DNA of 27,282 nucleotides from assembly GCA_934169535.1 (NCBI GenBank), contig CAKPOC010000005.1:1-27282 (forward strand). Reading direction: 5' to 3'. The notes beneath the pieces are model-generated. The model was not told the DNA's origin and made no database searches. It worked only from the letters and a program-made list of their open reading frames with translations. Each line of letters opens with the position of its first letter. Within the stretch, counting starts at the first letter, position 1. Position numbers and translations under genes: made by a program. This document shows positions 2,371 through 27,282 of this stretch, one piece after another. This stretch comes from an uncultured Clostridia bacterium (GTDB taxonomy: Bacteria > Bacillota > Clostridia > TANB77 > CAG-508).

Positions 2371-2431
2371 TGTTATTCCCCCAGTTCACTTTAGTTTACA
2401 TAATTTTTTATATTAAAATATTGACATACTA

Positions 2432-2460: not shown

Positions 2461-2475
2461 TAATTTTTTCATAAT

Positions 2476-3189: not shown

Positions 3190-3191
3190 AA

Positions 3192-5375: not shown

Positions 5376-6743
5376 TTATTTTCCTAAGCAAAACTTCTTA
5401 AAAATTTCATTTATTATGTCTTCAGATGCGTTTTCTCCAGTTATACTTAATAAATTTTCTAAAATTTCTTTTATACATATTGAAGATATATCTACTGGCA
5501 TATTGTTTTTTATTGCTTCTTTTGCTTTTTTTAAGGCTTCTATGGCTTTTATTATATACTCTTTTTGTCTTTGGCTTGTCACAATTTCGCTATCATCTAA
5601 TTCTATTTGCCTTGCATTAAATAATTTTAATATTTCATCTTGTAAAAGATCATATCCTGTTTCATTTATTGTTGAAAAATTTATTTTTACATTTTTTAAT
5701 TTTTTTATTATTTCATTATTTTCTATGTACCCTTTTTTCAAATCAGTTTTATTTATAATTATTATTGCCTTTTTATTTTTTATAATTTCTATTATTTCTT
5801 TATCTTCCTCGTCAAGCTCACGAGAATCGTCAAATACAGCAATTATTAAGTCAGCAGTATTAATTATTTGTTTACTTTTTTTAACCCCTATTTGCTCAAT
5901 CTCGTCGCTTGTGTTTCTTATACCTGCTGTATCTATAATTTTTAGTGGAATTCCTTTTATATTTATATATTCTTCTATTGTGTCCCTTGTTGTGCCTTCT
6001 ATATTACTTACAATTGCCCTTTCTTCGCCTAAGATCATATTTAGTAAAGACGATTTTCCTACATTTGGCTTTCCTATAATCGTAGTTTTTATTCCTTCTC
6101 TTAAAATTTTTCCAATTGAAAAGCTTTCTTCTAGTTTTTTTAATTTTTCTTCTATATCGTTTAAAATATTATTAATTTTTTTATTAGTCGTTTCTTCAAT
6201 GTCATATTCAGGATAATCTATTGAGGCTTCTATGTCTGACATTAAATCTAATAATTCACTTTTTATTTCATTTATTTTTATAGATAATTTCCCGTCCAAA
6301 TGACGCTGTGCAACTTCCATTTCTTTTTCAGTTTTTGAATTTATTATATCTATAATAGATTCTGCTTGCGTTAAATCAATTCTTCCATTTAAAAATGCCC
6401 TTTTTGTGAATTCGCCTGGTTCCGCAAGTGTTGCGCCATTTTTTATGCACTCTTCTAATATGATTTTTTCAACAATCATTCCTCCATGTGCATTTATTTC
6501 ACACATATTTTCTTTAGTATAACTTTTAGGGCTAACGAAATATGAAACTAAAACTTCGTCAATGATTTCTTTTGTTTCATATTTTATTATATTCCCATAT
6601 TTCATTGTATACCCTTTTATAGGGCCTTTATTTTTGGGAACAAATATTTTTTCTAAAATTTTAAAGCAATCTTTTCCACTCATTCTTATTATTCCAATTC
6701 CGGCATTTCCTGGTGCCGTAGATATTGCAACTATTGTACTCAT
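5376..6743 (-). CDS. mnmE: tRNA modification GTPase MnmE (TrmE)
   Basis: 455 aa. N-terminal TIVAISTAPGNAGIGIIRMSG, G1 motif GKPNVGKSSLLN, DTAGIR, and the C-terminal FCLGK tetrapeptide. Confidence 0.97.
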   Translation of the reverse strand: MSTIVAISTAPGNAGIGIIRMSGKDCFKILEKIFVPKNKGPIKGYTMKYGNIIKYETKEIIDEVLVSYFVSPKSYTKENMCEINAHGGMIVEKIILEECIKNGATLAEPGEFTKRAFLNGRIDLTQAESIIDIINSKTEKEMEVAQRHLDGKLSIKINEIKSELLDLMSDIEASIDYPEYDIEETTNKKINNILNDIEEKLKKLEESFSIGKILREGIKTTIIGKPNVGKSSLLNMILGEERAIVSNIEGTTRDTIEEYINIKGIPLKIIDTAGIRNTSDEIEQIGVKKSKQIINTADLIIAVFDDSRELDEEDKEIIEIIKNKKAIIIINKTDLKKGYIENNEIIKKLKNVKINFSTINETGYDLLQDEILKLFNARQIELDDSEIVTSQRQKEYIIKAIEALKKAKEAIKNNMPVDISSICIKEILENLLSITGENASEDIINEIFKKFCLGK

Positions 6744-6758
6744 TTTTCCTCCTAAAAA

Positions 6759-6805
6759 AAGTCAAAGCAAGATTATAGAATTAACTAAAATCCGAACTTT
6801 GACTT
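6759..6805 (-). terminator. Hairpin between jag and mnmE (weak terminator or attenuator candidate)
   Basis: AAGTCAAAG (6759-6767) and CTTTGACTT (6797-6805) are perfect reverse complements (9 bp) separated by a 29-nt loop. On the minus strand the stem is followed by a T run and then the mnmE AGGAGG. The large loop makes it atypical. Confidence 0.3.
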
Positions 6806-6821
6806 CCGATTTAATATAAAA

Positions 6822-7508
6822 TTATTTTTTCTCAATTATTACTCTTCTTTTGTCGCCTTCGCCTATGCTATAAGTTGTTACTTTTGTACTATCTTGTAAT
6901 GTTGTATGAATAATTTTTCTTTCATATGGTGTCATAGGCTCTAACGTTACCTTTTTTCCTGTCCTAGCTACAGTTTTTTCTATTTTTGAAGCAAGGTCTT
7001 CTAATGTCTTTTTTCTTGTATCTTTATAGTTTCCTATATCTAATATTACTTTTACTTTATCTTCTATATTTTTTCCAGCTATATTGGTTATTATTAGCTG
7101 TAAAGAATTTAAAGCTTCTCCTCTATAACCAATTAAATTAGTTGAATCTTCTCCCTCAATTACTACATTTATTTTATTGTCATTTATTAAAACTTTGTAA
7201 CTTATTTTGTCAGATATTGTTTTTAAGAATTCACTTAAAAAGTTCTCTACATTTTCCTTTGCTTTTAAAAGGTTTTCTTCACTTATTTTTATTTCTTCCT
7301 TATGTTCTTTTTCCTTTTTTCCCTCTTTGCTTTCTTTTACAGTAATTTCAACTTTTACAATGTGTGGATCTAATATGCTAAAAAAGCTTTTTTTCTTTTC
7401 TTCTAATACTTTAATTTCCGCTTGTTCTTTTTTTATTCCAAGCTCTTTTAAGCCTTTTTCTATTGCTTCTTGAGTTGTTTTTCCCTCTGATATTATAGTA
7501 TTAAGCAT
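6822..7508 (-). CDS. jag: RNA-binding protein Jag/KhpB (Jag_N, KH and R3H domains)
   Basis: 228 aa. N-terminal EGKTTQEAIEKGLKELG (Jag_N) and C-terminal R3H region LEPMTPYERKIIHTTLQD. Canonical position after yidC, with an 8-nt overlap. Confidence 0.9.
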   Translation of the reverse strand: MLNTIISEGKTTQEAIEKGLKELGIKKEQAEIKVLEEKKKSFFSILDPHIVKVEITVKESKEGKKEKEHKEEIKISEENLLKAKENVENFLSEFLKTISDKISYKVLINDNKINVVIEGEDSTNLIGYRGEALNSLQLIITNIAGKNIEDKVKVILDIGNYKDTRKKTLEDLASKIEKTVARTGKKVTLEPMTPYERKIIHTTLQDSTKVTTYSIGEGDKRRVIIEKK

Positions 7509-8337
7509 TTTCTTCGTTCTCCTTATCTTTGTTAAAAAATTTATTTATAATTAATCTTTCTATAATCATTACTAAATTACTTATAAACCAATAAAGTGCT
7601 AAGCCTAGTGGGGCAATAAATGCTATTGAAATAGACATAATTGGAAGCATATAGTTCATTGACTTATTCATCTGTTCCATAGAATTCGCTAAGTCTTCTC
7701 CACCTTGCTCTTCCCCATCTTTCTTTTTTGTTTGGCTGTTATTAGTTAATTTCATTGATATCATTGAAGTTATTACATATAAGATAGGAATAATGTATAC
7801 TGTTGGATCTTTTAAATTCTGCATTGGAACTTTGCTTAAATCTAAACCTAAAAACTGCATATTAATATATACATTTTCATCTTGCTCAGATTTTTTTTGA
7901 ATTATTTGAATTTCTGGATAATTCGAAGCAGCTCCGCTTTCTTCTTTTATTTCGTTAGAATATTGGTTTATTAATTCAGGATTTACTTTTTTCATATATG
8001 TAAGTGGCTTACTTACAACCCAAAATACTGATAATATTATAACTATTTGTAAAATTGAAATTACACATCCTGAAAAAGGATTAAACTTTTCTGTTTTATA
8101 TAAATCTATAGTTGCCTGATTTAGTCTTTCTGGATCATTTTTATATTTATTTTGTATTTCAGTCATTTTTGCTTGCATTCTGTTTTGTGCTTTTACAGAC
8201 TTTTGCTGAATAATAGTTATTGGAATTAGTATTATTCTAAGTAGTATAGTAAACAGAATAATCGCTATTCCGTAGTTGTTTACTAAGTTATACAAAAAAT
8301 TTAAAACATATCCAAATAAACTTGATATTGCTCCCAT
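7501..8337 (-). CDS. yidC: Membrane protein insertase YidC (Oxa1 family)
   Basis: 278 aa and multi-pass. NYGIAIILFTILLRIILIPITIIQQKS, followed by MQAKMTEIQNKYKNDPERLNQATIDLYK and C-terminal PLGLALYWFISNL. Confidence 0.93.
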   Translation of the reverse strand: MGAISSLFGYVLNFLYNLVNNYGIAIILFTILLRIILIPITIIQQKSVKAQNRMQAKMTEIQNKYKNDPERLNQATIDLYKTEKFNPFSGCVISILQIVIILSVFWVVSKPLTYMKKVNPELINQYSNEIKEESGAASNYPEIQIIQKKSEQDENVYINMQFLGLDLSKVPMQNLKDPTVYIIPILYVITSMISMKLTNNSQTKKKDGEEQGGEDLANSMEQMNKSMNYMLPIMSISIAFIAPLGLALYWFISNLVMIIERLIINKFFNKDKENEENA

Positions 8338-8350
8338 ATTGTACCTCCAC

Positions 8351-8569
8351 TTATTTTAAAGGGTCATATCCTCCTTTTGAAAAAGGATTACACTTTAAAA
8401 TTCTTTTTATTGCTTTTGCCGTTCCTATAAAACAGCCATATTTTTCTATCGCTTGTCTTGCATATTCAGAACAGCTTGGATAGAATTTGCAATTTATCCC
8501 TATTTTAGATAATACAGGAGATAAATTTTTTTGATATATTTTTATCATATAAATTAAAATTTTTTTCAT
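8351..8569 (-). CDS. yidD: Membrane protein insertion efficiency factor YidD
   Basis: 72 aa. CKFYPSCSEYARQAIEKYG and the NPFSKGGYDP motif. Overlaps the rnpA stop by 4 nt. Confidence 0.9.
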   Translation of the reverse strand: MKKILIYMIKIYQKNLSPVLSKIGINCKFYPSCSEYARQAIEKYGCFIGTAKAIKRILKCNPFSKGGYDPLK

Positions 8570-8910
8570 TTTTTTAATAATGTTGCTTCCTCAAAGCATT
8601 TATTCATTTCGCTTTTTATTGATTCATAGCAATTATAATCCACAGGTGTTTTTTTGTTCCATAAAAAAACTATGTCATAGCCTTTTTCTAATTTTTTCAT
8701 TATGTCATAATAATTTGCCCTGATAAGTCTTTTTATTTTATTACGCCCTACTGCCTTGCATAAATGTTTATTAATAGCAACTCCAAAAGTATTTTCATTT
8801 TTATTGTTTGGTTTTATGTATACAATTATATGTTTTTTTACATAGTATTTTCCATATTTTAAAACATTGTTAAATTCATAATTTTTTTTTAGGGTTTTAA
8901 TTTTCTTCAT
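8566..8910 (-). CDS. rnpA: Ribonuclease P protein component RnpA
   Basis: 114 aa, basic. KAVGRNKIKRLIR (RNR-like motif). Located downstream of rpmH. Confidence 0.9.
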   Translation of the reverse strand: MKKIKTLKKNYEFNNVLKYGKYYVKKHIIVYIKPNNKNENTFGVAINKHLCKAVGRNKIKRLIRANYYDIMKKLEKGYDIVFLWNKKTPVDYNCYESIKSEMNKCFEEATLLKK

Positions 8911-8930
8911 TTTTACTCTTCTAAAATATA

Positions 8931-8962
8931 ATAATAAAAAAGACCACTAAACGCTTTAGTGG
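8931..8962 (-). terminator. Rho-independent terminator or attenuator between rpmH and rnpA
   Basis: CCACTAAA (8944-8951) and TTTAGTGG (8955-8962) form an 8-bp stem with a 3-nt loop. On the minus strand the stem is followed by TCTTTTTTATTATT. Confidence 0.6.
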
Positions 8963-8976
8963 CTCAAATTAAGTAA

Positions 8977-9111
8977 CTACGCACTAAGTTTTTTTCTGCC
9001 TTTTGCACGTCTAGCTTTTATTATGTTTCTTCCAGCTCTTGTACTCATTCTTTTCATAAAACCATGTTCTTTTTGTCTTTGTATTTTTTTAGGTTGATAT
9101 GTTCTTTTCAT
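8977..9111 (-). CDS. rpmH: 50S ribosomal protein L34 (not in the supplied ORF track)
   Basis: Hand translation of the minus strand gives [44 protein letters not shown] (44 aa). GGAGGTG lies 7 nt upstream. ATG is at 9111-9109 and the stop (TAG) at 8979-8977. Confidence 0.92.
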
Positions 9112-9173
9112 TTAAAGCACCTCCTATTTTGTGTATATTAATTATTACTAATTTTCTTTCATAAGTATTTGAT

Positions 9174-9203
9174 ATTATATACCAAGAATCACGGTTATGT
9201 CAA
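9174..9203 (-). promoter_or_regulatory. rpmH promoter (consensus hexamers)
   Basis: Minus strand: TTGACA (plus 9198-9203), 18-nt spacer, TATAAT (plus 9174-9179), about 60 nt upstream of the rpmH ATG. Confidence 0.55.
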
Positions 9204-9249
9204 TACTTTTACAGAAATTTAAAAATATTTATTTTTCTTTTGTTTTTTA

Positions 9250-9278
9250 TTGACTAATATCCCCTATTTTGATATTAT
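9250..9278 (+). promoter_or_regulatory. dnaA promoter candidate with extended -10
   Basis: TTGACT (9250-9255), 17-nt spacer ending in TGA, TATTAT (9273-9278). The DnaA-box cluster lies in the predicted leader, consistent with autoregulation. Confidence 0.5.
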
Positions 9279-9366
9279 ATACCAAAATGATAAGTGCGGT
9301 AAAAACTTTTTTGTTTTTTTGCTTACGCCTATACGTAAAAACTAAGGATAATGAATAGTTTGGAAG

Positions 9367-9411
9367 TTATCCACAATCTGTGGATAACCCTGTGGATAAC
9401 TATGTGAATAA
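9367..9411. promoter_or_regulatory. Upstream DnaA-box cluster (oriC left part and dnaA autoregulatory region)
   Basis: TTATCCACA at 9367-9375. TGTGGATAA at 9379-9387 and 9391-9399. TGTGAATAA (one mismatch) at 9403-9411. Confidence 0.85.
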
Positions 9412-9457
9412 CATTTATTTTTTTACTTTTTTCTTAATTATTGGAAGGATTATCAAA

Positions 9458-10804
9458 ATGCAGAACGAAATTAACGAATTATTAACCAAAGCAAAAGAAC
9501 TTTTAAAAGAAGAAGTTACAACAATTTCATATGAAACATGGATAAAAGGAATAGAGATTCAAAGTGTAGATAATGAAAAAATAAACTTAATTGTTACCAA
9601 TAATTTTACAAAAGATTTCTTAATGTCTAAATATTCTAGTCTATTAACTAATACTTTTAATTATTTAACAAATAAGGACTGCATAGTAACAATTTATTCT
9701 AGAGAAGAATTAAATGCTGCTGCAGAAAATGGTACTTCCACAGGGCCTATACAAATTGAAGCTCCTATTAATTATGCCTCTGCAAATTTAAATCCAAAAT
9801 ATACTTTTGCGTCATTTGTAGTTGGTAATAATAATAGGTTCGCTCATGCTGCAGCTTTAGCCGTTGCTGAAGCTCCTGCAGCATCTTATAATCCATTATT
9901 TATTTATGGTGGTGTTGGTCTTGGAAAAACTCACTTAATGCACGCCATCGGTAACGAAATTTTAAAAAATAACCGAAATTCTCGAATTTTATATGTAACA
10001 TCTGAAGCATTTACTAATGAATTAATAAATGCCATAAAGGATAATACTGGTGATCAATTTAGAAATAAATACAGAAGTATTGATGTTTTATTAATTGATG
10101 ATATCCAGTTTATTGCAGGGAAAGACCGAATTCAGGAAGAATTTTTCCACACATTTAATACATTATATGAAAGTGGAAAGCAGGTAATTTTATCTAGTGA
10201 TAAGCCACCAAAAGATATTCCTTTATTGGAAGATAGATTAAAGTCAAGGTTTGAATGGGGAATTATTGCAGATATTTCTAACCCTGATTACGAAACACGT
10301 TTAGCTATACTTAGAAAAAAAGCTCAAATAGAAAACATAATAATAGATGATGAAATTCTTTCAACTATAGCTACACGAATTGATTCAAATATTAGAGAAC
10401 TAGAAGGAGCCTTAAATAAATTAACTGCCAAAGCATCACTTGTGCAAACACCAATCACTATGGAAATGGCAGAGCGCGCTATAAATGATATTGTCGCAGC
10501 TCAAGAAAAAGTTATATCTGCAGAATTTATTCAAGATGTTGTTGCAAAATATTTTAGTGTAAATCCTAAAGATTTAAAAGGTTCAAAAAGGTCTAATGAC
10601 ATTACTTTTCCAAGGCAAATTGCAATGTATATGTGTAGAAATGTTGCAAATATGTCTCTTCCACAGATAGGACGAGCTTTTGGCAAAAGGGATCACACAA
10701 CAGTAATGCATGCTTGCAATAAAGTTGAACAAGACATGAAATTAAACTCAAATACAAAACTAATTGTGGAAAGTGTGAAAAACTTAATCCTCAACGACAA
10801 ATAA
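9458..10804 (+). CDS. dnaA: Chromosomal replication initiator protein DnaA
   Basis: 448 aa from the ATG at 9458 (MQNEINELL...), with GGAAGGA 8 nt upstream. Walker A LFIYGGVGLGKTHLMHA, Walker B LLIDDIQF, and domain IV with DHTTVMHA. The ORF-track start at 9380 would translate the DnaA boxes themselves. Confidence 0.97.
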   Translation: MQNEINELLTKAKELLKEEVTTISYETWIKGIEIQSVDNEKINLIVTNNFTKDFLMSKYSSLLTNTFNYLTNKDCIVTIYSREELNAAAENGTSTGPIQIEAPINYASANLNPKYTFASFVVGNNNRFAHAAALAVAEAPAASYNPLFIYGGVGLGKTHLMHAIGNEILKNNRNSRILYVTSEAFTNELINAIKDNTGDQFRNKYRSIDVLLIDDIQFIAGKDRIQEEFFHTFNTLYESGKQVILSSDKPPKDIPLLEDRLKSRFEWGIIADISNPDYETRLAILRKKAQIENIIIDDEILSTIATRIDSNIRELEGALNKLTAKASLVQTPITMEMAERAINDIVAAQEKVISAEFIQDVVAKYFSVNPKDLKGSKRSNDITFPRQIAMYMCRNVANMSLPQIGRAFGKRDHTTVMHACNKVEQDMKLNSNTKLIVESVKNLILNDK

Positions 10805-10904
10805 TTGATATTTCAACAAAAATCGACAAAAAACAAAATTAATGTTTGTAAAAATTATGTTTTGTAGAAAGTAACGGAGCTGTTCCTACGGATACGCTAG
10901 GAGG

Positions 10905-11125
10905 TTATCCACAGGGGTGCTGTGGATAACCTGTGGATAAAATGTGGATAACTGAGTTATCCACAAGTTTACATTTTTCCTGTGGATAACTTCTCGATTT
11001 TTCCACAGAGTTATCCACATCGGAAAACTTAGGGCCACTTAGCTTACACTTAGTTTTCCACACAATCCACAGCACCTACTACTACTACTACTAAATATAT
11101 TTATATTATTATAATAAAGGAGACG
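10905..11125. other. oriC core between dnaA and dnaN: DnaA-box array, DnaA-trio-like repeat, AT-rich unwinding element
   Basis: TTATCCACA at 10905, 10957 and 11011. TGTGGATAA at 10921, 10932, 10943 and 10981. TTTTCCACA at 10999 and 11054. CAATCCACA at 11063. These are followed by GCAC, (CTA)x6 at 11076-11093, and the A/T-only segment aaatatatttatattattataataaa up to the dnaN RBS. Confidence 0.9.
11076..11093. repeat. (CTA)x6 trinucleotide repeat = DnaA-trio-like element
   Basis: Six perfect CTA units on the + strand. The complementary strand reads 3'-GAT-5' repeats, matching the published DnaA-trio motif 3'-G/AAT-5'. The repeat is placed 4 nt after the last DnaA box and directly before the AT-rich region. 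Confidence 0.75.
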
Positions 11126-11132
11126 AAGACAA

Positions 11133-12240
11133 ATGAAACTACTTTGTGAGAAGGATAAAATCCTTAAAGCATTGAATTCCGTAACTAAAGCTGTTGCTGT
11201 TAGAACAACAATGCCTATATTAGAAGGAATTCTAATACAAACTAATGATAATGAAATAAAATTAACAACTTATGATTTAGAAATAGGAATAGAATATATC
11301 ATTAATGATTGTAAAGTAGAAGAACAAGGAGCTACAGTTGTAAATGCTATAATGTTTACTGAAATAATCAGAAGACTTCCTGATACAGAAATTAGTATAT
11401 CTGTAAATGATAAAAATTTATTAGTTATAGAATGTGAAGGTTCTTTATATAAACTTGCAACAATGAATCCAGATGAATTTCCTGAATATAGAAAATTCAA
11501 TTGAAATAGAGCAAGCTGCATTAAAAGATATGATAAGAAAGACTATTTTTGCTGTAAGTACAGAAGAAAATAGACCAATATTTACAGGATGTTTATTTGA
11601 AATTGCAAACAATAAGTTAAATGTTGTTGCTGTTGATGGATTTAGACTTGCTTGGAAGAGCAAATATTTACAAAGTAAAGTAAATAATTTTTCTGCTGTT
11701 ATTCCAGGAAGAACATTAAATGAAATGAATAAGATTTTAGTAGATTCTTTTGATAACGTAAAAATAGGAGTTGCTAAAAACCAAGTTTTATTTGAATTGG
11801 AAAACTGCAAAATAGTAACAAGACTTTTAGATGGAGAATTTTTAAATTATTCAAGTGTTATTCCAGAACATTGGGAAACAAGAATTAGAGCAAACAGAAA
11901 TATATTACAAGATTGTTTTGAAAGAATAAGCTTAATTTCATCTTCAAGCATAGAAAAAGAGAAGAAATATCCAGTAAAAGTTTCTATAGATGTTGGAAAA
12001 GTTACAATTTCTTGTACAAATCAAACTGGGGATGCAAAAGAAGAAATAATGGTTAATACAGAAGGAAAAAATTTGGAAGTAGGATTTAATCCAAAATACT
12101 TTTTAGATGTATTAAGAAATATAGATGATGAAGAAGTATTTGTTGATTTTGGCTCAAGTATTTCTCCATGTATAATAAGACCAGTAGAATCAGATGGCGA
12201 TTATACTTATATGATTTTACCAATAAAATTAAAAGAATAA
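11133..12240 (+). CDS. dnaN: DNA polymerase III beta subunit (sliding clamp) DnaN, interrupted by a +1 frameshift as sequenced (fragments 11133-11504 and 11473-12240)
   Basis: The two ORF-track pieces (123 aa and 255 aa) are colinear with a ~368-aa DnaN. Piece 1 ends ...LATMNPDEFPEYRKFN*. Piece 2 continues IENSIEIEQAALKDMIRKTIFAVSTEENRPIFTG in the +1 frame. The frame change lies within 11484-11502. Confidence 0.9.
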
Positions 12241-12259
12241 TACGGAAAAGGGCACATAC

Positions 12260-12291
12260 TTTTCCACAATTGGGGCACAGAATGTGGATAA
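12260..12291. promoter_or_regulatory. Convergent DnaA-box pair at the recF start
   Basis: TTTTCCACA (12260-12268) and TGTGGATAA (12283-12291) are 14 bp apart. The second box overlaps the recF ATG (12282). Confidence 0.6.
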
Positions 12292-13358
12292 CTAGTTTAG
12301 AAATGCAAAATTTCAGGAATTACGAAAAAGAAAAAATAGACTTTTCTAAAAATATAAATGTTTTTTATGGAGATAATGCTCAAGGAAAAACAAATATCAT
12401 AGAAGCTATTTTTATAGGTTCAATAGGAAAGTCTTTTAGAACAAATAAAGAAAAAGAAGTAATAAAACACAACGAAAATTTTACTAATATTATTATAAAT
12501 TATCAAAATAAAGATAGAGATGGTAATATAAAAGTACAAATTTCAAATAAAAAAAATATTTTTGTAAATGGTGTAAAAATAAAAAAATTAAGTGATTTAT
12601 TAGGAACAATTAACATCGTATTATTTACACCTGACGATATAAATATATTAAAAAATGGGCCAGACCAAAGAAGAAAATTTTTAAATATGATGATTGGACA
12701 AATTAGGCCAAACTATGTTAATATATTAAATACATATACAAAGGTAATAGAACAAAGAAATAACTATTTAAAACAAATAAGAGATTCAGAACAAACGTCT
12801 AAGATAAATTATAACATGTTAGATATATGGGATGAACAACTTTCAAATCTATCTTACAAAATATGTTTGTACAGAACCGAGTTTATAAATAAAATTTCTG
12901 ATAAAATAAAAGATATTCATAAAAATATTACAGAAAATAAAGAAAATATAAAAATTGAATATATTACCGAAAGTAGAGATCCCAAAAAATTATTAGAACT
13001 TATAAAACAAAGAAGAAAATTAGACATAATAAAAGGTTACACAACTAAAGGAGCACATAGAGATGACTTTAACATATATGTAGATGATGATTTAGTGTCT
13101 GTTTATGGCTCTCAAGGCCAGCATAGAACGGCTGTGTTATCACTAAAAATAAGTGAACTTAAAATAATAGAAGAAGAAACTGGAGAAAGTCCAATTTTAT
13201 TATTAGATGATTTTATGTCAGAGTTAGATAGTAAAAGAAGAAAAAATTTGCTTAATAATATAGGAAATACACAAGTTATAATAACTTGTACAGACGAAAT
13301 GGATAATAATTTTTTAGGAAAAATTTCTAAAGTAAAAGAAGGAAAAATTATAAAATAA
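12282..13358 (+). CDS. recF: DNA replication and repair protein RecF
   Basis: 358 aa from the ATG at 12282 (MWITSLEMQNFRNYEKE...). Walker A FYGDNAQGKTNIIEAI, signature SQGQHRTAVLSLK, Walker B PILLLDDFMSELD. The ORF-track start at 12168 lies inside dnaN. Confidence 0.93.
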   Translation: MWITSLEMQNFRNYEKEKIDFSKNINVFYGDNAQGKTNIIEAIFIGSIGKSFRTNKEKEVIKHNENFTNIIINYQNKDRDGNIKVQISNKKNIFVNGVKIKKLSDLLGTINIVLFTPDDINILKNGPDQRRKFLNMMIGQIRPNYVNILNTYTKVIEQRNNYLKQIRDSEQTSKINYNMLDIWDEQLSNLSYKICLYRTEFINKISDKIKDIHKNITENKENIKIEYITESRDPKKLLELIKQRRKLDIIKGYTTKGAHRDDFNIYVDDDLVSVYGSQGQHRTAVLSLKISELKIIEEETGESPILLLDDFMSELDSKRRKNLLNNIGNTQVIITCTDEMDNNFLGKISKVKEGKIIK

Positions 13359-15314
<1,956 letters not shown>

Positions 15315-15749
15315 AAATTAATAACCTGCAAGATATTTCTTGCAGGTTATTATTATAAAGCTGATATCAATCCCAGCTAAAACTAATACACCTATCGCTA
15401 CCATCTAATATATATTGCTATATAAATAAACAATAAAAACAAATATATTAATCAGTTGCTAGAATATAAGTCTACCCATAATAGCTATATTCATCCAAAC
15501 GAGGGACTAAAAATAACCACTAAAAGATAAAAATATACTCATAACATAGAATAATTACTACATAAAGTCAGCAATATAATAATAAATAATATAGCTTAAA
15601 AACGAAATAATTACTCACGTCGCCGACTGTAACCAACCTAAAATATTAAGCTAATTAAAATCTTTGCTCGAAACAGTTAAAACCGAAAGATCTTAACGAC
15701 TTCTTAGTTCAACTGATATCAACCTTGTAATAGTATTATTGTCAAAATA
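15315..15749 (-). ncRNA. Candidate ~430-nt structured non-coding RNA (unclassified; prediction only)
   Basis: A consensus promoter is on the minus strand at 15756-15785, and the terminator hairpin at 15323-15348 also works on the minus strand. No ORF of 60 aa or more occurs in either strand. A 13-bp long-range helix (15714-15726 with 15357-15369) and a 9-bp hairpin (15676-15697) are fully paired only in the minus-strand RNA, through G-U pairs. C exceeds G on the + strand here, opposite to the flanking + strand genes. Confidence 0.3.
15323..15348. terminator. Bidirectional rho-independent terminator after gyrB
   Basis: AACCTGCAAG (15323-15332) and CTTGCAGGTT (15339-15348) form a 10-bp stem with a 6-nt loop. 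It is followed by ATTATTAT on the + strand and by ATTAATTTTTAT on the - strand. Confidence 0.75.
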
Positions 15750-15755
15750 AAAAAA

Positions 15756-15785
15756 ATTATACAAGAATATTTATTTTTTTGTCAA
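15756..15785 (-). promoter_or_regulatory. Consensus sigma-A type promoter firing leftward (away from the island genes)
   Basis: Minus strand: TTGACA (plus 15780-15785), 18-nt spacer, TATAAT (plus 15756-15761). Confidence 0.5.
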
Positions 15786-15815
15786 AATAATAAATAATTT
15801 GACTTACGATTATTC

Positions 15816-15844
15816 TTGACAATAATAAAAAAAGAAAATAAAAT
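15816..15844 (+). promoter_or_regulatory. Promoter of the island operon (176-aa gene onward)
   Basis: TTGACA (15816-15821), 17-nt spacer, TAAAAT (15839-15844), then GGAG at 15863-15866 and the ATG at 15872. Confidence 0.5.
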
Positions 15845-15871
15845 AATAAAAAATAAAAGAAAGGAGAATGA

Positions 15872-16402
15872 ATGTATAATTCTATACAAAAATGGTTGCC
15901 AATAGAAGAAATAAATAAAAATGGAATAATAAAATTAAAAAATAATTATTTAATAAAAATTATAGAAATAAAACCAATAAATTATAATCTAAAATCATAT
16001 AGCGAAAAGGAAGCTATTTTAAATTCTTATAAATTATTTCTAAAAAATTGTGATTTTAATTTTCAAATATTAATTCAAAGTTCAAAAAAAGATTTAAATA
16101 AATATATATTAAAAATTCAAGAACAAAATAAAAATGAAGAAAATAATATAAAAAATATTTCTGAAGAATATATAAAAAATTTAAAAATAATAAATTCTCA
16201 AAATAAATCCGATATAAAAAATTTTTATTTTATTATTAATGAAAAAAAAGAAAAAAATAATGAAGAAATAATATTAAATAAATTAAACGAAAAATATTTA
16301 AAAATAAAAGAATTTATTTCTCGTTGTGGGAACAGTGCAGAAGAAATAAAAGAATATGACAAAATAATTAAAATATTAAAAAAAACAATTTATTTAAAAT
16401 AA
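15872..16402 (+). CDS. Hypothetical 176-aa protein resembling the N-terminal domain of Gram-positive VirB4-type (T4SS) ATPases; no ATPase domain
   Basis: SIQKWLPIEEINKNGIIKLKNNYLIKIIEIKPINYNLKSYSEKEAILNSYKLFLKNCDFNFQILIQS follows the pattern recalled for N-termini of Tn916 Orf16/TcpF-like conjugation ATPases (xQxxLP...DGI...Y.K...I..INY.L.S..EKE.I...Y..FL......Q.L). No TM segment and no Walker motifs. Family assignment is from memory, not from a search. Confidence 0.45.
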   Translation: MYNSIQKWLPIEEINKNGIIKLKNNYLIKIIEIKPINYNLKSYSEKEAILNSYKLFLKNCDFNFQILIQSSKKDLNKYILKIQEQNKNEENNIKNISEEYIKNLKIINSQNKSDIKNFYFIINEKKEKNNEEIILNKLNEKYLKIKEFISRCGNSAEEIKEYDKIIKILKKTIYLK

Positions 16403-16651
16403 ATAAAAAAATAATAAAAAAAAAATAATAAATAAAATAAATAATAAATAAAAAAATAAATAAATAAAAAATAAATAATAAAAAAAAATAAATAATAAAT
16501 AAATAAAAAATAATAAATAAAATAAATAATAAATAAAAAAATAATAAATAAAAAAATAAATAAATAAAAAATAAATAATAAAAAAAATAAATAATAAATA
16601 AATAAAAAATAATAAATAAAATAAAAATAAAAAAAATAATAAATAATAAAA
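16387..16651. repeat. 265-nt tract containing only A and T, built from an 85/99-nt tandem repeat (about 2.4 copies)
   Basis: No G or C occurs between C16386 and G16652. Unit 1 is 16426-16510 (85 nt). Unit 2 is 16511-16609 (99 nt), equal to unit 1 plus a 15-nt insert taataaataaaaaaa and minus one A. A partial unit 3 spans 16610-16651. A-runs recur about every 15 nt. Confidence 0.95.
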
Positions 16652-16663
16652 GGAGGAGTAAAT

Positions 16664-18403
16664 ATAGAAAATAATAAAAATATTATAGACATAATTCCGT
16701 CATATATAGATTTTAAAAATCCTAAATATATAGAAATTGAAGAAAAATATACGAGTGGAATTATAATTGTAGACTATTATAGAAAACAAAATGATTTAAT
16801 TCTAAAAAATTTAATTAATTCAAATATTAATTTTAATCTTTCAATATTCATAGAAAAACAAAACACAGAAAAAATAATTAGAGATTTAACTTATAATATA
16901 GGTAATGCTTCTGTAGATTTAAATAGTAAAAATAAAAATAGGCAAGACATAGATATAATTGAATTTACTTATGATGATGCAAAATATATAAGAAAACAAT
17001 TACAAATAGAAGATGAAAATTTATATTATTTTTATATTTATATAAATGTAATTGCAGATAATTTAGAAGAATTAAAAAATAATATTAATAAAATAAGAAG
17101 CACTTTAGAAATTAATGGAATAAAAACAAGACTAGGATATTTCAGACAAGAACAAATATATATAGGAACGATGCCATTAATGCTAAATAATCAAGAAATA
17201 AAAAATGCAGCTAGAAAAAATATTTTAACTTCAAGCTTAGTTTCAACATATCCATTTATATCAAATTCTATTTTTGATGAAGATGGAGTTTTAATAGGCA
17301 AAAATATGTATAACAATTCCTTGATTTTTATAAATAAATATGACAGTAATAAATACAAAAATGCTAATATGTGTATTTTTGGAACCAGTGGAGCAGGAAA
17401 ATCACATTATACAAAATTAAATATAATTAGATCTAGACTATTAGGAATAGATCAATATATTATAGATCCAGAAAGAGAATACAATAATTTATGCAAAAAT
17501 TTAGGAGGTAGTTTATTAAAAATAGGACCTACTTCAAATATATATATAAATATTTTTGACATAACAGAAGAATCAATAGAAGAAGGTGAAAAAGGATATT
17601 TATCAAATAAATTAATTAAATTGATGGGATTTTTTAAATTGATTTTTGGAAATATAGACGAAATAGAAAAAGGATTAATAGAAGAAAAAATAATAAATAT
17701 TTATGAGCAAAAAAATATAAATTTTGAGGATGAAAGTTTATATAAAAATAATAAATTTAAAAAATCGGAAGATATGCCAATTTTAGAAGATTTATTTTAT
17801 GAATTTGGAAAAGATAAAAAAACTAAAAAATTTCAAATAAAATTAATTCCTTTTATAAAAGGATCACTTAAATTTTTTAATAATTATACTAATATAAAAA
17901 TTAATAATAAATTAGTTGTAGCAGATGTTTATGATTTAGGTGAAGAAAATTTAAAATATGCTATGTACATTTTTATGGAAATATTTTGGAATTACATAAA
18001 AAAAGATAGAAAAAAGAAAAAGGCAATATATATAGATGAAATTTGGAGATTAATAGGAGTTACATCAAATAAGGAAGTTGCAAGCTTTGTTTATAAAATT
18101 TTTAAAACAATTAGAAAATATGGAGGAAGCGCTGTTGCAATAACACAGGATATATCCGATCTTTTTAGTTTGGATGATGGAAATTTTGGAAAAAGCATTT
18201 TAAATAATTCTAGCATAAAAAATTTTTTCGCACTAGAAGAAGAAAATATTAAAATTTTAAAAAAATATAGTAATATTTCAGAGAAAGAAGAATTGGATAT
18301 AAAATCACTCCAAAAAGGAGAAACTCTTATGTTTATCGAAAAAGAACATATTCTAGCTAAAATAGAAACTTTTGATTATGAAAATAAAATAATAAATAAT
18401 TAA
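16664..18403 (+). CDS. VirB4/TraE(TrsE)-like type IV secretion ATPase; no canonical start codon (putative ATA start at 16664, first ATG only at 17171)
   Basis: The frame is open from 16649. AGGAGG (16651-16656) sits 7 nt before ATA 16664. The N-terminal domain IIPSYIDFKNPKYIEIEEKYTSGIIIVDYY...FYIYINVIADNLEEL...RLGYFRQEQ is typical of Gram-positive VirB4/TrsE proteins. Walker A is IFGTSGAGKSHY, Walker B is AIYIDEIW, and the C-terminal motif is AVAITQDISD. The ORF track lists only 17171-18403. Confidence 0.8.
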   Translation: MENNKNIIDIIPSYIDFKNPKYIEIEEKYTSGIIIVDYYRKQNDLILKNLINSNINFNLSIFIEKQNTEKIIRDLTYNIGNASVDLNSKNKNRQDIDIIEFTYDDAKYIRKQLQIEDENLYYFYIYINVIADNLEELKNNINKIRSTLEINGIKTRLGYFRQEQIYIGTMPLMLNNQEIKNAARKNILTSSLVSTYPFISNSIFDEDGVLIGKNMYNNSLIFINKYDSNKYKNANMCIFGTSGAGKSHYTKLNIIRSRLLGIDQYIIDPEREYNNLCKNLGGSLLKIGPTSNIYINIFDITEESIEEGEKGYLSNKLIKLMGFFKLIFGNIDEIEKGLIEEKIINIYEQKNINFEDESLYKNNKFKKSEDMPILEDLFYEFGKDKKTKKFQIKLIPFIKGSLKFFNNYTNIKINNKLVVADVYDLGEENLKYAMYIFMEIFWNYIKKDRKKKKAIYIDEIWRLIGVTSNKEVASFVYKIFKTIRKYGGSAVAITQDISDLFSLDDGNFGKSILNNSSIKNFFALEEENIKILKKYSNISEKEELDIKSLQKGETLMFIEKEHILAKIETFDYENKIINN

Positions 18404-18418
18404 GAAAGGATTGATATA

Positions 18419-19126
18419 ATGAATTTAGCATTAGAAAATAATTTACAAAATAATTTAGATTTAGAAAATAAACAAAAGAATTTTTTAGAAACCAGTTTAG
18501 GAAAAGCAATAAATACAGGTTTAAATATTGGAATAAGATATTTACTTCCGGACCTTATAGAAGATGAAGTAATTAATATTAAAGATAGTATTTTTAATAA
18601 TGGAATAAAAGAAGGATTAAAAACTGCTGTAAATTCAGCAATAAATTTAGGAAAAAGTACGGTAGGAATATTTACGGGAAATTTTGAAAATATAAATCAA
18701 ATGCAAATGGCAATAAAAAACGGAGGAATAATAGATTCAATTTCTTCACTTGTTAATAAATCAATTAATAAAACGGTTGAATCAAAAAAATTGAATTATA
18801 GTGTTGGCAATACAATAAAAAGAGGAGCAAATAGTTTATTAAGTAGTATTTCTAAAAACATAGAAAATGAATTTGAAAACCAAGTAAATAATATAGAATA
18901 TTTAAATAAATATATAAATAATTGGAAAAACTATTTTAATAATAAAGATTTTGAAGGAATGCAAAGAGAATATGAAAAAATAAATGTAAAGGCAAAAGAA
19001 ATAGCACCAATAGAAAAAACAATAAATGATATAAAAAATGTTCAAAATTTGCATAAATTAATTAAAAACAATGGCCAAAATTTTAATTTATCAGATGAAG
19101 AAATGGAGCTTGCAAAAATGCTATAA
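18419..19126 (+). CDS. Hypothetical 235-aa alpha-helical protein, no recognised domain
   Basis: ORF with AAAGGA 7 nt upstream, beginning 16 nt after the ATPase stop. Rich in N/K/I/E with amphipathic Gly/Ala-containing segments (GLKTAVNSAINLGKSTVGIFTG). No TM helix and no signal peptide. Confidence 0.55.
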   Translation: MNLALENNLQNNLDLENKQKNFLETSLGKAINTGLNIGIRYLLPDLIEDEVINIKDSIFNNGIKEGLKTAVNSAINLGKSTVGIFTGNFENINQMQMAIKNGGIIDSISSLVNKSINKTVESKKLNYSVGNTIKRGANSLLSSISKNIENEFENQVNNIEYLNKYINNWKNYFNNKDFEGMQREYEKINVKAKEIAPIEKTINDIKNVQNLHKLIKNNGQNFNLSDEEMELAKML

Positions 19127-19163
19127 AAAACTAAAAAAACTTAGAAAAATAAGGCTTTTTTAC

Positions 19164-19192
19164 TTGCAAAAAGAATGTAGTTTTAGTATAAT
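19164..19192 (+). promoter_or_regulatory. gyrA promoter
   Basis: TTGCAA (19164-19169), 17-nt spacer, TATAAT (19187-19192), about 37 nt upstream of the ATG at 19229. Confidence 0.55.
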
Positions 19193-19228
19193 ACGAAGTG
19201 AATAAATGATATGAAAAGAGGTAAAAAA

Positions 19229-21685
19229 ATGGCAGGCAAGGAAGTACAAGAACCAGAAGATAGAAATGGTAAAGTCATAGAAAAAGATGTAGAAAAAGAA
19301 ATGAAAGATGCTTACATGGCATATGCAATGAGCGTTATTGTATCTAGAGCTTTACCAGACGTAAGAGATGGATTAAAACCAGTACATAGAAGAATTTTAT
19401 ATACTATGTATGAAGATGGTTTAACATCAGATAAGCCATACAGAAAGTCAGCAACTACAGTTGGTGACGTTTTAGGAAGATATCACCCACATGGTGACGC
19501 ATCTGTCTATGATGCTATGGTAAGAATGGCACAAACATTTTCACTTAGGTACCCATTGGTAGATGGACATGGTAACTTTGGATCAATAGATGGTGATCCT
19601 GCAGCTGCTTACCGTTACACAGAAGCTAGAATGTCAAAAATATCAGAACTAATGCTATCTGATATTGAGAAAAATACAGTAGATTTTATGCCAAACTTTG
19701 ATGACAGATTAAAAGAACCAACTGTATTGCCATCAAGAATACCAACTTTGCTTATAAATGGCTCATCAGGTATAGCCGTAGGAATGGCAACTAATATTCC
19801 ACCACACAATTTAACAGAAATTATAAATGCAATTATAAAAATAATAGATAGTGACAATGTTACAGACGAAGAGCTATTACAAATTGTAAAAGGCCCAGAT
19901 TTTCCAACAGGAGGATTAATTCTTGGAAGAGAGGCCATAAAGCAAGCTTATACAACAGGTAGAGGAAAGCTTACAATGAGGGCTGAAGCTGAAATTGAAG
20001 AAACAAGCAGTGGAAGACAAAAAATACTTGTAACTTCACTTCCATACCAAGTAAATAAATCTAAATTAATTGAAAATATAGCAGAACTAGTAAAAGAAAA
20101 AAGAATTGAAGGAATATCAGAGCTACGTGATGAATCAGACAGAGAGAACGCTGTTAGAATTCACATAGGATTAAAAAAAGATGCAAATGCAAGAGTTGTA
20201 TTAAATCAATTATATAAAAATACACAAATGCAAGAAACATTTGGTGTAATTATGCTTGCATTAGTTGATGGTGAACCTAAAATTTTAACACTAAGACAAT
20301 GTTTAGATTACTATATTGAACATAGAAAAGATGTAATTTTACGTAGAACTAAATTTGAACTTGATAAAGCTTTAGCGAGAGCTCATATTTTAGAAGGATT
20401 AAGAATTGCAATAGATAACATTGATGAAGTAATCAGAATTATAAGGGAATCTTATGATGATGCAAAAGAACAATTAATGAATAGATTTGGATTGTCAGAC
20501 ATACAAGCACAAGCTATTTTGGATATGAGATTAAAAACTTTATCTGGATTACAAAGAGAAAAAATAGAGGAAGAATATCAAGAACTATTAAAATTAATAG
20601 CACATTTAAGAGAAATTCTTTCAAGTGAAAAACTTGTATTTGACATAATCAAAGAAGAGTTAACTGAAATTAAAAATAAATATGGAGATGACAGATTAAC
20701 TAAAATTGTTGCTGCCGAAGGAGAATTCAACGATGAAGATCTTATAAAAAATGAAGAAACAGTTGTTGCATTAACTCATTTTGGATATATAAAAAGAATG
20801 CCAATAGATACATACAGAAGCCAAAAGAGAGGCGGAAAGGGTATAAGCGGAATTTCTACAAGAGAAGAAGATTTTGTAAAACAAATATTTACAGCAAATA
20901 CTCATGATACTGTACTATTCTTTACTAATAAAGGAAAACTATACAGATTAAGAGGTTTCGAAATACCAGAAGCAGGTAGAACTGCTAAAGGAACAGCTAT
21001 TGTAAACTTATTAAGTTTAGATGCAGGAGAAAAAGTATCTGCGGTAATTCCATTAAAATCATTTAAGGATGCAAAATATTTAATAATGGGAACAAAAAAT
21101 GGATTGATTAAAAAGACACCATTAGAAGAATATGATTCAAGTAGAAAAACAGGATTACTTGCAATTAATTTAAAAGAAGATGACGAATTAATTGATGTAA
21201 GATTAACAGACGACGAGAAAAACATTGTTTTAGTAACTACAAAAGGAATGTGCATAACATTTGATGAAAAAGATGTAAGACCTGTAGGAAGATTAGCACA
21301 AGGAGTAATTGGAATAAAACTAGATGATGATGACTTTGTAATAGGAATGGAATCAATAGAATCATCAAATAAAAAGGCAACATTGCTTGCAATTACAGAA
21401 AATGGATTTGGAAAGAGAACGGAACTTGAAGAATATAGAGTTCAAAATAGAGGTGGAAAAGGAGTAATAACTTACAAAATAACACCAAAGACTGGAAATA
21501 TAGTAGGAATAAGGATTGTTGAAGAAAAAGAAGATGTAATGTTAATTACAAATTCAGGAACAATAATTAGATTCAAAGTTAAAGATGTAAGCATTTTAGG
21601 AAGATCTACTCAGGGAGTAACTTTAATGAGAACAAATGCTAACGAAAAAGTCGTAAGCATAGAAACTGTAAATCCAGAAGAATAA
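19229..21685 (+). CDS. gyrA: DNA gyrase subunit A
   Basis: 818 aa from the ATG at 19229 (MAGKEVQ...), with AAAGAGGT 6 nt upstream. The in-frame ATG at 19211 has no [37 protein letters not shown], active-site [11 protein letters not shown], and C-terminal beta-pinwheel repeats with GGKG motifs. Confidence 0.97.
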
Positions 21686-26805: not shown

Positions 26806-27282
26806 ATGAAAAAGCAAAAAGAAGATAAAAACAATTTCTTTTCAGGAACAATTTATGAAAAAGATGAAATAAGTCCATCATATATAAACATGGAAAATCC
26901 TAAATATTTAGAAATAGATGATTTATATTATTCAGGATTAATAGTTGTAAATTATTATAGAGAGCAAAATGATATATTACTAAAAACATTAATAGAAACA
27001 AACATAAATATGAATATTTCAATTTTCTACGAAAAGCAAGACTCATATAAAACAATAAAAGATTTAACTTACCACATAGGAAATGTAGGAGTAGAATTAA
27101 AAGAAAGCAACCAAAATAGAGAAGATATTGATATAGCTGCGTTTACATATAATGACGCAAAATATATAAGAAAAGAAATTCAAGTAAATAATCAAGATAT
27201 TTATTTTTTATATATTTATATTACAGTTTATGCAGATAATAAAAAAGATTTAGAGTATTATTTAAATAAAATAGAAGGAATA
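26806..27282 (+). CDS. Second VirB4/TraE-like ATPase gene, N-terminal 159 codons only (runs off the window)
   Basis: ATG at 26806, open to the window end. MKKQKEDKNNFFSGTIYEKDEISPSYINMENPKYLEIDDLYYSGLIVVNYYREQNDILLK... aligns colinearly with residues from about 11 onward of the 16664-18403 product. Hand alignment gives 75 identities in 128 positions. Confidence 0.8.
   Translation, partial: MKKQKEDKNNFFSGTIYEKDEISPSYINMENPKYLEIDDLYYSGLIVVNYYREQNDILLKTLIETNINMNISIFYEKQDSYKTIKDLTYHIGNVGVELKESNQNREDIDIAAFTYNDAKYIRKEIQVNNQDIYFLYIYITVYADNKKDLEYYLNKIEGI

Follow-up and report, generated by a model that had tools for sequence, protein, structure and literature searches.

A split VirB4 gene block and an unclassified structured RNA between gyrB and gyrA at the replication origin of uncultured gut Clostridia

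The subject of this study is the 3.9 kb that separate gyrB from gyrA in a stretch of 27,282 nucleotides, hereafter the window, from an uncultured Clostridia bacterium (contig CAKPOC010000005.1 of assembly GCA_934169535.1). The original prediction, made from the letters of the window alone, described this interval as an island of foreign or fast-evolving DNA carrying an orphan VirB4-like ATPase. The comparison of related loci leads to another conclusion: to judge from its sequence and its distribution, the interval is no inserted island: it is an old gene block, passed on vertically, that sits at the replication origin in a clade of low-GC gut Clostridia, all uncultured. It is likely, moreover, that the block is a domesticated type IV secretion system (T4SS) gene set that lacks a relaxase, with a VirB4 split between two genes, a helical protein that we call H, and an RNA gene of about 410 nucleotides (nt). 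The features of the block and the two genes that anchor it are the following, with protein lengths in amino acids (aa) and the basis of each assignment, including the listing of open reading frames (ORFs):

13383..15314, plus strand: gyrB, left anchor of the conserved block (ORF listing; in 65 of 65 related loci, the gyrB upstream of the module is 80-95% identical to it)
15319..15352, both strands: perfect 15-bp hairpin, a bidirectional terminator for gyrB (plus) and for the RNA gene (minus)
15319..15730, minus strand: structured RNA gene of about 410 nt, unclassified (fold z-score, covariation, at least 60 loci)
15872..16402, plus strand: N-domain protein, 176 aa, a detached VirB4 N-terminal domain of the TrsD/TraC-like kind (NCBIfam and Pfam-assigned orthologues)
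16387..16651, no strand: A/T-only low-complexity spacer of 265 nt (207 A, 58 T), the longest such run in the window, with TAA in all frames
16664..18403, plus strand: VirB4/TraE-type ATPase, 579 aa (580 codons) (family profiles, motifs)
18419..19126, plus strand: H, a soluble, all-helical protein of 235 aa, a lineage-specific partner (ORF listing, homologues, synteny)
19211..21685, plus strand: gyrA, right anchor of the conserved block (ORF listing and synteny)

The 265-nt run, the 176-aa and 235-aa ORFs and the 580-codon frame are all found where the original prediction had placed them; what changes is the meaning of their being together. The window itself is the replication-origin region (oriC) of a low-GC gut Clostridia genome of the TANB77/CAG-245 kind. 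The closest records are uncultured gut 'Clostridia bacterium' genomes, among them Clostridium sp. CAG:245 (our locus L020; loci are designated by an L and a number), Clostridium sp. CAG:567 and a circular genome of 1.57 Mb. CAG-245 has been assigned to the order TANB77 (PMC11680825).

A scan that used one genome per species found at least 359 relatives, and 80 loci were fetched. In every one of the 65 species loci with enough flanking sequence, gyrB precedes the module, that is, the genes for the N-domain protein, the ATPase and H. On the other side, gyrA follows H in 52 loci out of 55, with a median gap of 144 nt, the exceptions being L039, L041 and L088. The gene order is recF, gyrB, an M14 peptidase gene in some lineages, N-domain, ATPase, a ParA-like gene in most lineages, H and gyrA. 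Independent contigs from ENA and from Logan have the same arrangement, and in a lineage whose ATPase is 52% identical and whose GyrB is 69% identical, the module is still downstream of gyrB. The M14 peptidase, a zinc carboxypeptidase encoded between the RNA gene and the N-domain gene in L003 (6373-7290) and also in L064, L068 and L086, could be a cell-wall-remodelling partner.

The genes of the block are also under purifying selection. The ATPase has a ratio of nonsynonymous to synonymous substitution rates (dN/dS) of 0.12-0.28, H one of 0.19-0.36 and the N-domain one of 0.24-0.51, compared with 0.09-0.24 for recF and 0.04-0.10 for gyrB and gyrA; since dS is near saturation (0.6-1.2), all these values are rough.

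The original prediction was right in finding the coding sequence of the module richer in A+T than its neighbours: the GC content is 13% for the N-domain gene, 20% for the ATPase gene and 22% for the gene of H, against 32% for gyrB and 31% for gyrA. Two other genes of the window, those of GerM (20%) and recF (24%), are as low as the module genes. Over the 64 loci that have all the flanking and module genes, the median GC content is 22% for the ATPase, 22% for recF, and 31% for gyrB and gyrA; the gap between the module and gyrB/gyrA is seen in all 64 loci, and recF has it too. Because the low GC content is order-wide and is matched by recF, the AT-richness is put down to amino-acid composition and to constraint, in a genome that is itself very rich in A+T, and not to recent import. 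Comparing the gyrB-gyrA interval among relatives, as the original prediction had proposed, thus tells against both its foreign island and its decayed remnant: the same genes occupy one position in all the related species loci examined, the 65 loci include no empty site, selection is purifying and the low GC content extends to the whole order.

Both halves of VirB4 can be recognised with family profiles. The ATPase scores 66.3 bits against the Pfam family P-loop_TraG (PF19044, cut-off 25.8) and 42.4 bits against AAA_10 (PF12846, cut-off 27.5), and it aligns to positions 191-730 of the 752 positions of the NCBIfam CD1110-family model (NF045971) with an E-value of 1e-80. The N-domain protein matches positions 2-160 of the CD1110 family (E = 3.5e-8, 32.2 bits). 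Since the two ORFs align to separate parts of one model, they are the two halves of one VirB4. The N-domain protein also resembles the NCBIfam family TrsD/TraD (NF041427, E = 4.7e-4), a resemblance only, as its 20 bits are under the 200-bit cut-off; its orthologues have a precomputed assignment to the TraC-like family PF26593. The profile searches that had been suggested for these proteins therefore bear out how they were first read, the ATPase scoring as VirB4/TraE/AAA_10 and the 176-aa protein as a VirB4 N-terminal domain.

The family profile of the ATPase matches the solved VirB4 domain 4AG5/4AG6 (E = 6e-48, profile positions 207-587). The motifs GTSGAGKS, IYIDEIW and AITQD are all present, and the Walker A residues, the DE of the Walker B motif (IYIDEIW) and the TQD (AITQD) are invariant in an alignment of 10 diverse homologues (alignment A1). 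Homologues of the ATPase number in the thousands, the best 120 being 61-79% identical to it. An exhaustive search delimits a compact family, with full-length representatives at 63, 52, 50, 47, 44, 43 and 40% identity; ordinary VirB4 proteins of about 800 aa come next, at about 33%. Homologues on plasmids are 27-33% identical, and forms of about 570 aa without the N-domain occur there. At every locus examined the N-domain is a separate ORF, so that VirB4 is split throughout, and in some assemblies the ATPase gene is itself broken up (L093). The two proteins would reassemble into a VirB4 hexamer.

In the window, the two halves are parted by the A/T-only spacer, which overlaps the final 16 nt of the N-domain gene. 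The length of the spacer between the N-domain and the ATPase genes varies from 20 to 1588 nt across species, and independent A/T-only runs occur in relatives, up to a length of 216 nt; a HiFi circular genome (L035) has one that measures 119 nt. The 265-nt tract is one state of a hypervariable low-complexity spacer, produced most likely by slippage. A fusion of the two halves by frameshift or bypass was considered and rejected, given these lengths and the stop codons that the spacer of the window has in all frames. Also rejected was an ORF of 100 aa on the minus strand (16390-16692), an artefact of the poly-T complement of the tract.

Long stretches poor in ORFs were seen inside the module of some relatives: they measure 1.5-3.9 kb and hold no ORF of at least 70 aa in L061 (12800-16714) and in L088 (13034-16812 and 8388-9911). 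They separate either the ParA-like gene from H or the N-domain from the ATPase. In L061, the portion read is very rich in A+T, with internal repeats of about 110 nt.

The signals that may govern transcription of the interval are the following:

15816..15844, plus strand: promoter-like site, predicted for the module operon, TTGACA-17-TAAAAT, 11 of 12 matches, back to back with the promoter of the RNA gene
15735..15764, minus strand: promoter of the RNA gene, -35 TTGTAT (15764-15759) and -10 AATAAT (15740-15735), conserved in 52 aligned relatives
15785 to 15756, minus strand: window-specific consensus promoter match, TTGACA-18-TATAAT, 12 of 12, upstream of the conserved promoter of the RNA gene
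19164..19192, plus strand: promoter-like site before gyrA, TTGCAA-17-TATAAT, 10 of 12 matches

The total number of promoter-like sites in the window is not above that of shuffled sequences, and weight is consequently given only to the top matches. The promoter that had been predicted for gyrA is the last of these sites. The terminator predicted for gyrB at 15323-15348 is confirmed as the perfect hairpin at 15319-15352, whose stem is maintained in the alignment of relatives by compensatory changes; a scan found 2 terminator-like sites where 0.3 were expected. As for the divergent promoter region of the original prediction, its back-to-back promoter matches are present, and the region encodes in addition the structured RNA of about 410 nt on the minus strand. 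The three genes of the module probably form one operon, transcribed from the site at 15816-15844. A 265-nt tract without G or C leaves no room for a -35 box of the TTGACA type, so that the ATPase gene would probably be co-transcribed with the N-domain gene.

The start of the ATPase gene needs some attention. Its frame is open from 16643 to 18403, and the first ATG, GTG or TTG comes only at 17171; the motif GGAGG at 16652-16656, followed after 7 nt by ATA at 16664, marks the probable start. Upstream of the conserved N-terminus, no canonical start codon is available in about 23 of the 92 loci examined, and many others offer one only 16-35 codons inside that N-terminus. The combination of GGAGG or AGGAG with ATA or ATT 5-9 nt further on is found in the window, in L013, L017-L019, L048, L049, L055, L056, L066 and L076, and in others. 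ATT, ATA or ATC stands behind a Shine-Dalgarno motif in 66 of 86 loci, a count that is weak alone, such codons being common by chance in this composition. Even with the frequency of these codons in mind, near-cognate initiation of the ATPase is likely. The ATPase would then be translated at a low level, starting from ATA or ATT after a strong Shine-Dalgarno site, and the spacer would uncouple it from the N-domain.

The third protein of the module, H, has 3792 homologues, about 240 aa long in the relatives, and its gene is always between the ATPase gene (or the ParA-like gene) and gyrA. No Pfam domain is among the matches listed for H, and a sequence-profile search of the PDB gave nothing significant (best E = 0.17). 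The AlphaFold2 model, computed from 47 sequences, is poor (predicted local distance difference test score, pLDDT, of 57), and a Foldseek comparison of this model with the PDB had no match at E of at most 0.001. An hhalign comparison with the proteins of 255 aa and 273 aa that come after the ParA-like gene in L179 gave nothing, and a search for relatives of H on plasmids and viral contigs found none.

Related loci carry further genes that bear on the reading as a secretion system. In most lineages, the module includes a ParA-like protein of 410-430 aa, with an N-terminal domain of about 165 aa followed by a MinD/ParA domain, in the manner of TadZ/CpaE. In these lineages, gyrA is followed on the opposite strand by dnaI, dnaB and then four more genes. 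A 93-aa protein with hydrophobic segments, encoded beyond gyrA-dnaI-dnaB, is 30% identical to the product of the gene that precedes VirB4 on contig L177; because that homologue sits immediately before VirB4, the protein is tentatively labelled VirB3-like. A polytopic protein of 292 aa matches TrbL/VirB6 in 2 of 11 orthologues (best E = 2.5e-4) and is tentatively called VirB6-like. A pilin-like protein of 114 aa, of the VirB2 type, matches T4SS_pilin in 10 of 10 orthologues (best E = 6.7e-6) and TrbC/VirB2 in 3. Finally, a coupling protein of the VirD4 type, a single ORF of about 580 aa in L120 (9818-11563), matches TrwB_AAD_bind (E = 2.4e-7), TraG-D_C and TraD.

With the coupling protein as seed, a scan of metagenomes yielded 80 loci, of which 41 are long enough to reach H: all 41 have the coupling protein, the pilin, the VirB6-like protein, the 93-aa protein, dnaB, dnaI, gyrA and H in that order, and 29 extend as far as the ParA-like gene. 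The shorter loci show the same order, cut short, and the genes past the coupling protein show no conservation. In L009 (20357-21905), the coupling protein appears as two ORFs, of 204 aa and of at least 298 aa, which may be due to a frameshift or to an assembly error.

Among the genes called in the loci of the relatives, in which not every ORF of every locus was scanned, there is no relaxase, and no cell-wall hydrolase was found in the clade loci besides the M14 peptidase of some lineages. A relaxase was seen only on a mobile relative, L177. This contig carries an unsplit VirB4 of 849 aa, 40% identical, together with a relaxase, MobC, an M23 hydrolase and antitoxin-like genes, and it has homologues of the clade set: the VirB3-like protein (the 93-aa protein), the pilin, the coupling protein (32-41% identical) and the VirB6-like protein. 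The ParA-like protein aligns over nearly its full length (24-29% identity) with an L177 protein composed of Response_reg and CbiA, whose gene precedes the RcpC gene. Since the partner genes lie beside gyrA-dnaI-dnaB in the relatives, and since they have homologues on a relaxase-bearing element, it is natural to read the whole as a domesticated, relaxase-less T4SS gene set with a split VirB4. The original prediction had allowed that a full T4SS nearby would make the block a fragment of it: a minimal set does lie beyond gyrA-dnaI-dnaB in the ParA-carrying relatives, and does not in the window.

Another locus, L179, has a split VirB4 that is 50% identical, with the genes of the VirB6-like protein, the VirB3-like protein, the N-domain, the ATPase and the ParA-like protein in one operon. 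This operon (262-12744) continues into a T2SSE/CpaF-like ATPase and further genes, which hints at a link of this VirB4 subtype to Tad-type machinery.

The simplest history would be that the mating-pore genes of a conjugative element became fixed at the origin, lost the relaxase and the hydrolase, and later parted into two groups. In the resulting machine, the VirB4 hexamer would energise the assembly of a channel of VirB6-like, VirB3-like and pilin proteins, and the passage of substrate through it; the coupling protein would deliver the substrate, and the ParA-like protein would position the machine. If a use is to be guessed, it would most likely be the contact-dependent export of DNA or protein.

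Several points, to which the roughness of the dN/dS values must be added, weigh against this reading. The ATPase reaches 271.8 bits with the CD1110 model, below the equivalog cut-off of 325, and is therefore related to the equivalog and not a member of it. H is without recognisable fold or relative in the searches made. The VirB6-like assignment is weak and the VirB3-like one, which comes from position and 30% identity, is tentative. Homologues of the coupling, VirB6-like, pilin-like and VirB3-like proteins were searched in the window with no match, and its scanned ORFs include no relaxase, hydrolase, integrase or other mobility gene; on this point the original prediction, which had remarked on the missing partners, holds. 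Because the window is without partners, relaxase and hydrolase, and its clade without a ParA-like gene, the VirB4 trio may act here without a secretion channel. The relatives compared are metagenome assemblies throughout, and the name TANB77 is taken from record titles and from one paper (PMC11680825).

The RNA gene is the other conserved element of the interval. It lies directly 3' of gyrB and convergent with it in at least 60 loci (nhmmer), its 3' end being the hairpin terminator shared with gyrB. The stretch from 15730 down to 15319 folds far better than shuffled sequences (z = -9.6), and contains no ORF above 28 aa. Its 5' and 3' ends pair in a 16-bp closing stem; it has five long hairpins, and the strands of its junctions are very conserved. 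The many invariant G-U pairs fix its strand as minus, and the invariant columns of an alignment of 52 sequences (alignment A4, 545 columns, 119 predicted pairs) give the consensus TTGAAT/CATAAT for its promoter.

The support from covariation can be measured by sliding the predicted partners by 1-3 columns in this alignment. With the pairs in place, 97.9% of the cells form a standard pair, compared with 37-44% in the slid versions; 81 of the 119 pairs have changes on both sides, compared with 26-37; and the covariation score is 0.389, compared with about 0.07. The observed covariation values were reached in 0 of 500 shuffles.

No match to the RNA was found in Rfam at the gathering score, and with thresholds of E at most 1 or at most 10, three members of the family had only chance matches to eukaryotic or plastid families. 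There is no tRNA match, and ARAGORN finds no transfer-messenger RNA (tmRNA). RNase P RNA, tmRNA, signal recognition particle RNA, 6S, OLE, ROOL and GOLLD were each considered and rejected by Rfam and ARAGORN, and their signature motifs are absent on inspection. The RNA is thus unclassified, and a candidate for a new RNA class. In some lineages, the M14 peptidase gene parts it from the module, which ties the RNA to the 3' end of gyrB and not to the module. Besides the copy that follows gyrB, L090 has a second, weaker one upstream (4029-4386, E = 3.7e-7).

Other genes and signals of the window point to its origin context. On the minus strand are the genes of ParB, ParA, RsmG, MnmG, MnmE, Jag, YidC and RnpA; on the plus strand, dnaA, dnaN, recF and gyrB. 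Clusters of perfect DnaA boxes (TTATCCACA) at 9367-9411 and 10905-11062, on either side of dnaA, mark oriC; with at most one mismatch, the window has 21 matches to the box where 8 are expected, and its cumulative GC skew has its minimum at 9-10 kb. The first cluster overlaps the GTG at 9380, where the ORF finder starts dnaA, so that the real start of dnaA is probably further downstream. The remaining ORFs of the window that were scanned are all housekeeping genes (10 ORFs, plus a coenzyme A (CoA)-enzyme activase and GerM).

One gene of this region, dnaN (11133-12240), appears in two frames, with residues 1-123 at 11133-11501 and residues 122-373 at 11482-12237. An error of sequence or assembly is the more likely cause, the other being a true frameshift in this essential gene.

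A second ATPase sequence is found at the edge of the window:

26806..27282, plus strand: second VirB4 ATPase, N-terminal 159 codons, matching the CD1110 family (E = 6e-13) and running off the end of the window

The original prediction had placed this paralogue at 26744 and had thought of several copies. The ATPase fragment is indeed present, with its ATG at 26806 and not at 26744; but it is a single edge fragment, of another lineage, and may be a chimera. It is 57% identical to the first copy, and 91% identical in amino acids and 85% in nucleotides to the canonical ATPase of the gyrB-gyrA locus in another species, L093. It is preceded by a 53-nt A/T-only tract, the second-longest such run of the window, which begins exactly at the stop codon of the GerM gene.

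There are two ways to account for this fragment, a horizontally acquired copy or an assembly chimera, and we hold them to be about equally likely. The first, a real paralogue from another TANB77 lineage that would give the genome two modules, is plausible without quite reaching an even chance: the sequence is contiguous in the window, the ORF is intact, with its own ATG and a GGT-containing ribosome-binding region, and a similar A/T-only tract precedes the first copy. However, the fragment is at the window edge, and it is joined to the rest within low-complexity A/T sequence, precisely where the GerM gene stops. No N-domain gene comes before it, as one does at every locus with an N-domain/ATPase pair; the genes closest to it are those of the canonical locus in other species; GerM is followed in relatives by a terminator and a methyltransferase gene; and at least one sequence error is probable in the window, the dnaN frameshift.

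The window belongs to a clade that it forms with L001, L006, L008, L013, L015-L020 and L032. These loci are without the ParA-like gene, which the clade would have lost, and have a CoA-enzyme activase and GerM after gyrA in place of dnaI, dnaB and the partner genes; L083 shares the features of the clade, but has different genes after gyrA. For this ParA-less clade, with no adjacent partners, the compact ATPase-centred system envisaged in the original prediction survives in a changed form. VirB4 is a member of the FtsK-HerA superfamily, and a co-opted housekeeping ATPase is conceivable: whether in this clade or throughout the order, the two-piece VirB4 and H would no longer serve secretion and would be a motor of this superfamily acting on DNA or another cytoplasmic substrate near the origin, for instance in chromosome handling or sporulation. 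In all lineages the genes are near the origin and alternate with gyrB, gyrA, dnaB and dnaI, the trio is under purifying selection even in lineages without adjacent partners or ParA-like gene, and H is soluble and clade-specific. Yet most lineages conserve coupling-protein and pilin genes along with the module, and the same set is found on a conjugative element, the window has its own ParA/ParB pair, DNA binding by the trio is hypothetical, and the absence of partners concerns the window and the loci of its clade. For these reasons we regard such a motor as unlikely.

A wider conjecture joins these elements, and we advance it as an improbable one that deserves mention. It would see, fixed across the order, a relaxase-less machine derived from conjugation, located at the origin, interleaved with gyrB, gyrA, dnaB and dnaI and placed beside an unclassified RNA; the clade of the window would keep only the split VirB4 and H, for a housekeeping task independent of any channel, such as DNA handling at the origin or in sporulation, and the RNA may be a cofactor or a regulator.

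There is also the possibility that the block is the decaying remnant of a conjugative element that landed between gyrB and gyrA. The window is without relaxase, coupling protein, channel and hydrolase, VirB4 is in two pieces around a junk-like A/T tract, the ATPase has no canonical start codon, and some assemblies have a fragmented ATPase (L093): these traits would suit decay. But the split is common to every locus examined, 65 of 65 species have the module at one fixed position, dN/dS stays well under 1, the catalytic motifs do not vary, and the strong Shine-Dalgarno motif with ATA or ATT recurs in relatives, all of which makes decay very improbable. Weakest of all is a recently acquired defence or accessory island, its low GC a sign of foreign origin, for which the GC content below that of gyrB and gyrA and a PADLOC match to mad8 (E = 5e-20) over the P-loop domain of the ATPase could be quoted, and which we consider practically dismissed: the mad8 match is limited to the generic P-loop region (residues 231-569) of a protein in a fixed core context, with no other component of the system and no PADLOC match for the N-domain or ParA-like proteins, the GC difference is present in all 64 loci with recF alike, presence is invariant among species, and H has neither viral nor plasmid relatives. 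A search of PHROGs gave generic P-loop and ParA matches only.

The preferred reading, a domesticated T4SS gene set, gives these genes an unusual standing. Type IV secretion genes are normally accessory and mobile; here they are fixed, core-like and under purifying selection in a large uncultured gut clade with genomes of about 1.5 Mb. A secretion or transfer machine retained in such genomes points to an important function between cells, or between cell and host; the clade has been linked to the response to cancer immunotherapy (PMC11680825). The module is a natural test case for the domestication of conjugation genes, and the 410-nt RNA has covariation support on a par with established large RNAs, yet belongs to no family. 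There is a lesson for annotation as well: in this genome, which is very AT-rich, a low GC content, a split gene and a missing ATG did not mean 'foreign' or 'dead'.

It remains to compare the block with known systems. A literature search (VirB4 with gyrA or gyrB, orphan VirB4, type IV secretion in TANB77, structured RNA near gyrB) returned no description of the module or of the RNA; the cluster of the TANB77 pilus paper is a different one, of the CpaF/Tad type. The module falls below the equivalog cut-offs and has neither the relaxase nor the variable presence of a mobile element: it is T4SS-component-like, and not that of a described element. In TadZ/CpaE, the ParA/MinD-family localisation ATPase of Tad pili, the succession of an N-terminal and a MinD/ParA domain is the same as in the ParA-like protein of the relatives. 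However, the ParA-like gene adjoins VirB4 and not a CpaF ATPase, it is absent from the window, and its role in localisation is presumed.

Small chromosomal T4SS sets are known: the 'type IVC' set VirB1/VirB4/VirB6/VirD4 of the 89K island of Streptococcus suis, and the chromosomal ComB system of Helicobacter pylori, which serves DNA uptake and works without a relaxase and without a coupling protein. By comparison, these systems are on islands or specific to a species, whereas the set described here is order-wide and linked to the origin, has no VirB1-type hydrolase in its loci, and keeps its coupling protein. The best family match for both halves of the protein is the CD1110 family (NF045971), with the VirB4 C-terminal domain of Thermoanaerobacter pseudethanolicus (4AG5/4AG6); the module protein differs in being split, in its 272 bits under a cut-off of 325, and in not being on a mobile element.

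The same division of VirB4, into an N-domain of about 200 aa and a P-loop ATPase of about 570-670 aa, exists in TrsD/TrsE (TraD/TraE) of Gram-positive conjugative plasmids of the pSK41, pGO1 and pIP501 type. The plasmid homologues of about 570 aa, without N-domain and annotated DUF87/traE, align over 96-98% of the ATPase. Identity is 27-28%, and in contrast to these plasmid genes the module is chromosomal, fixed at the origin and relaxase-less, its halves parted by a hypervariable A/T spacer. As to gene content, the L177 element has homologues of the same genes as the clade set, namely VirB3-like, VirB4, pilin, coupling and VirB6-like; it differs by its relaxase, MobC, M23 hydrolase and antitoxin-like genes, its unsplit VirB4 and its GC content of 35%. 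Compared with this element, the clade set is without relaxase and hydrolase, and is arranged in two divergent groups around gyrA-dnaI-dnaB.

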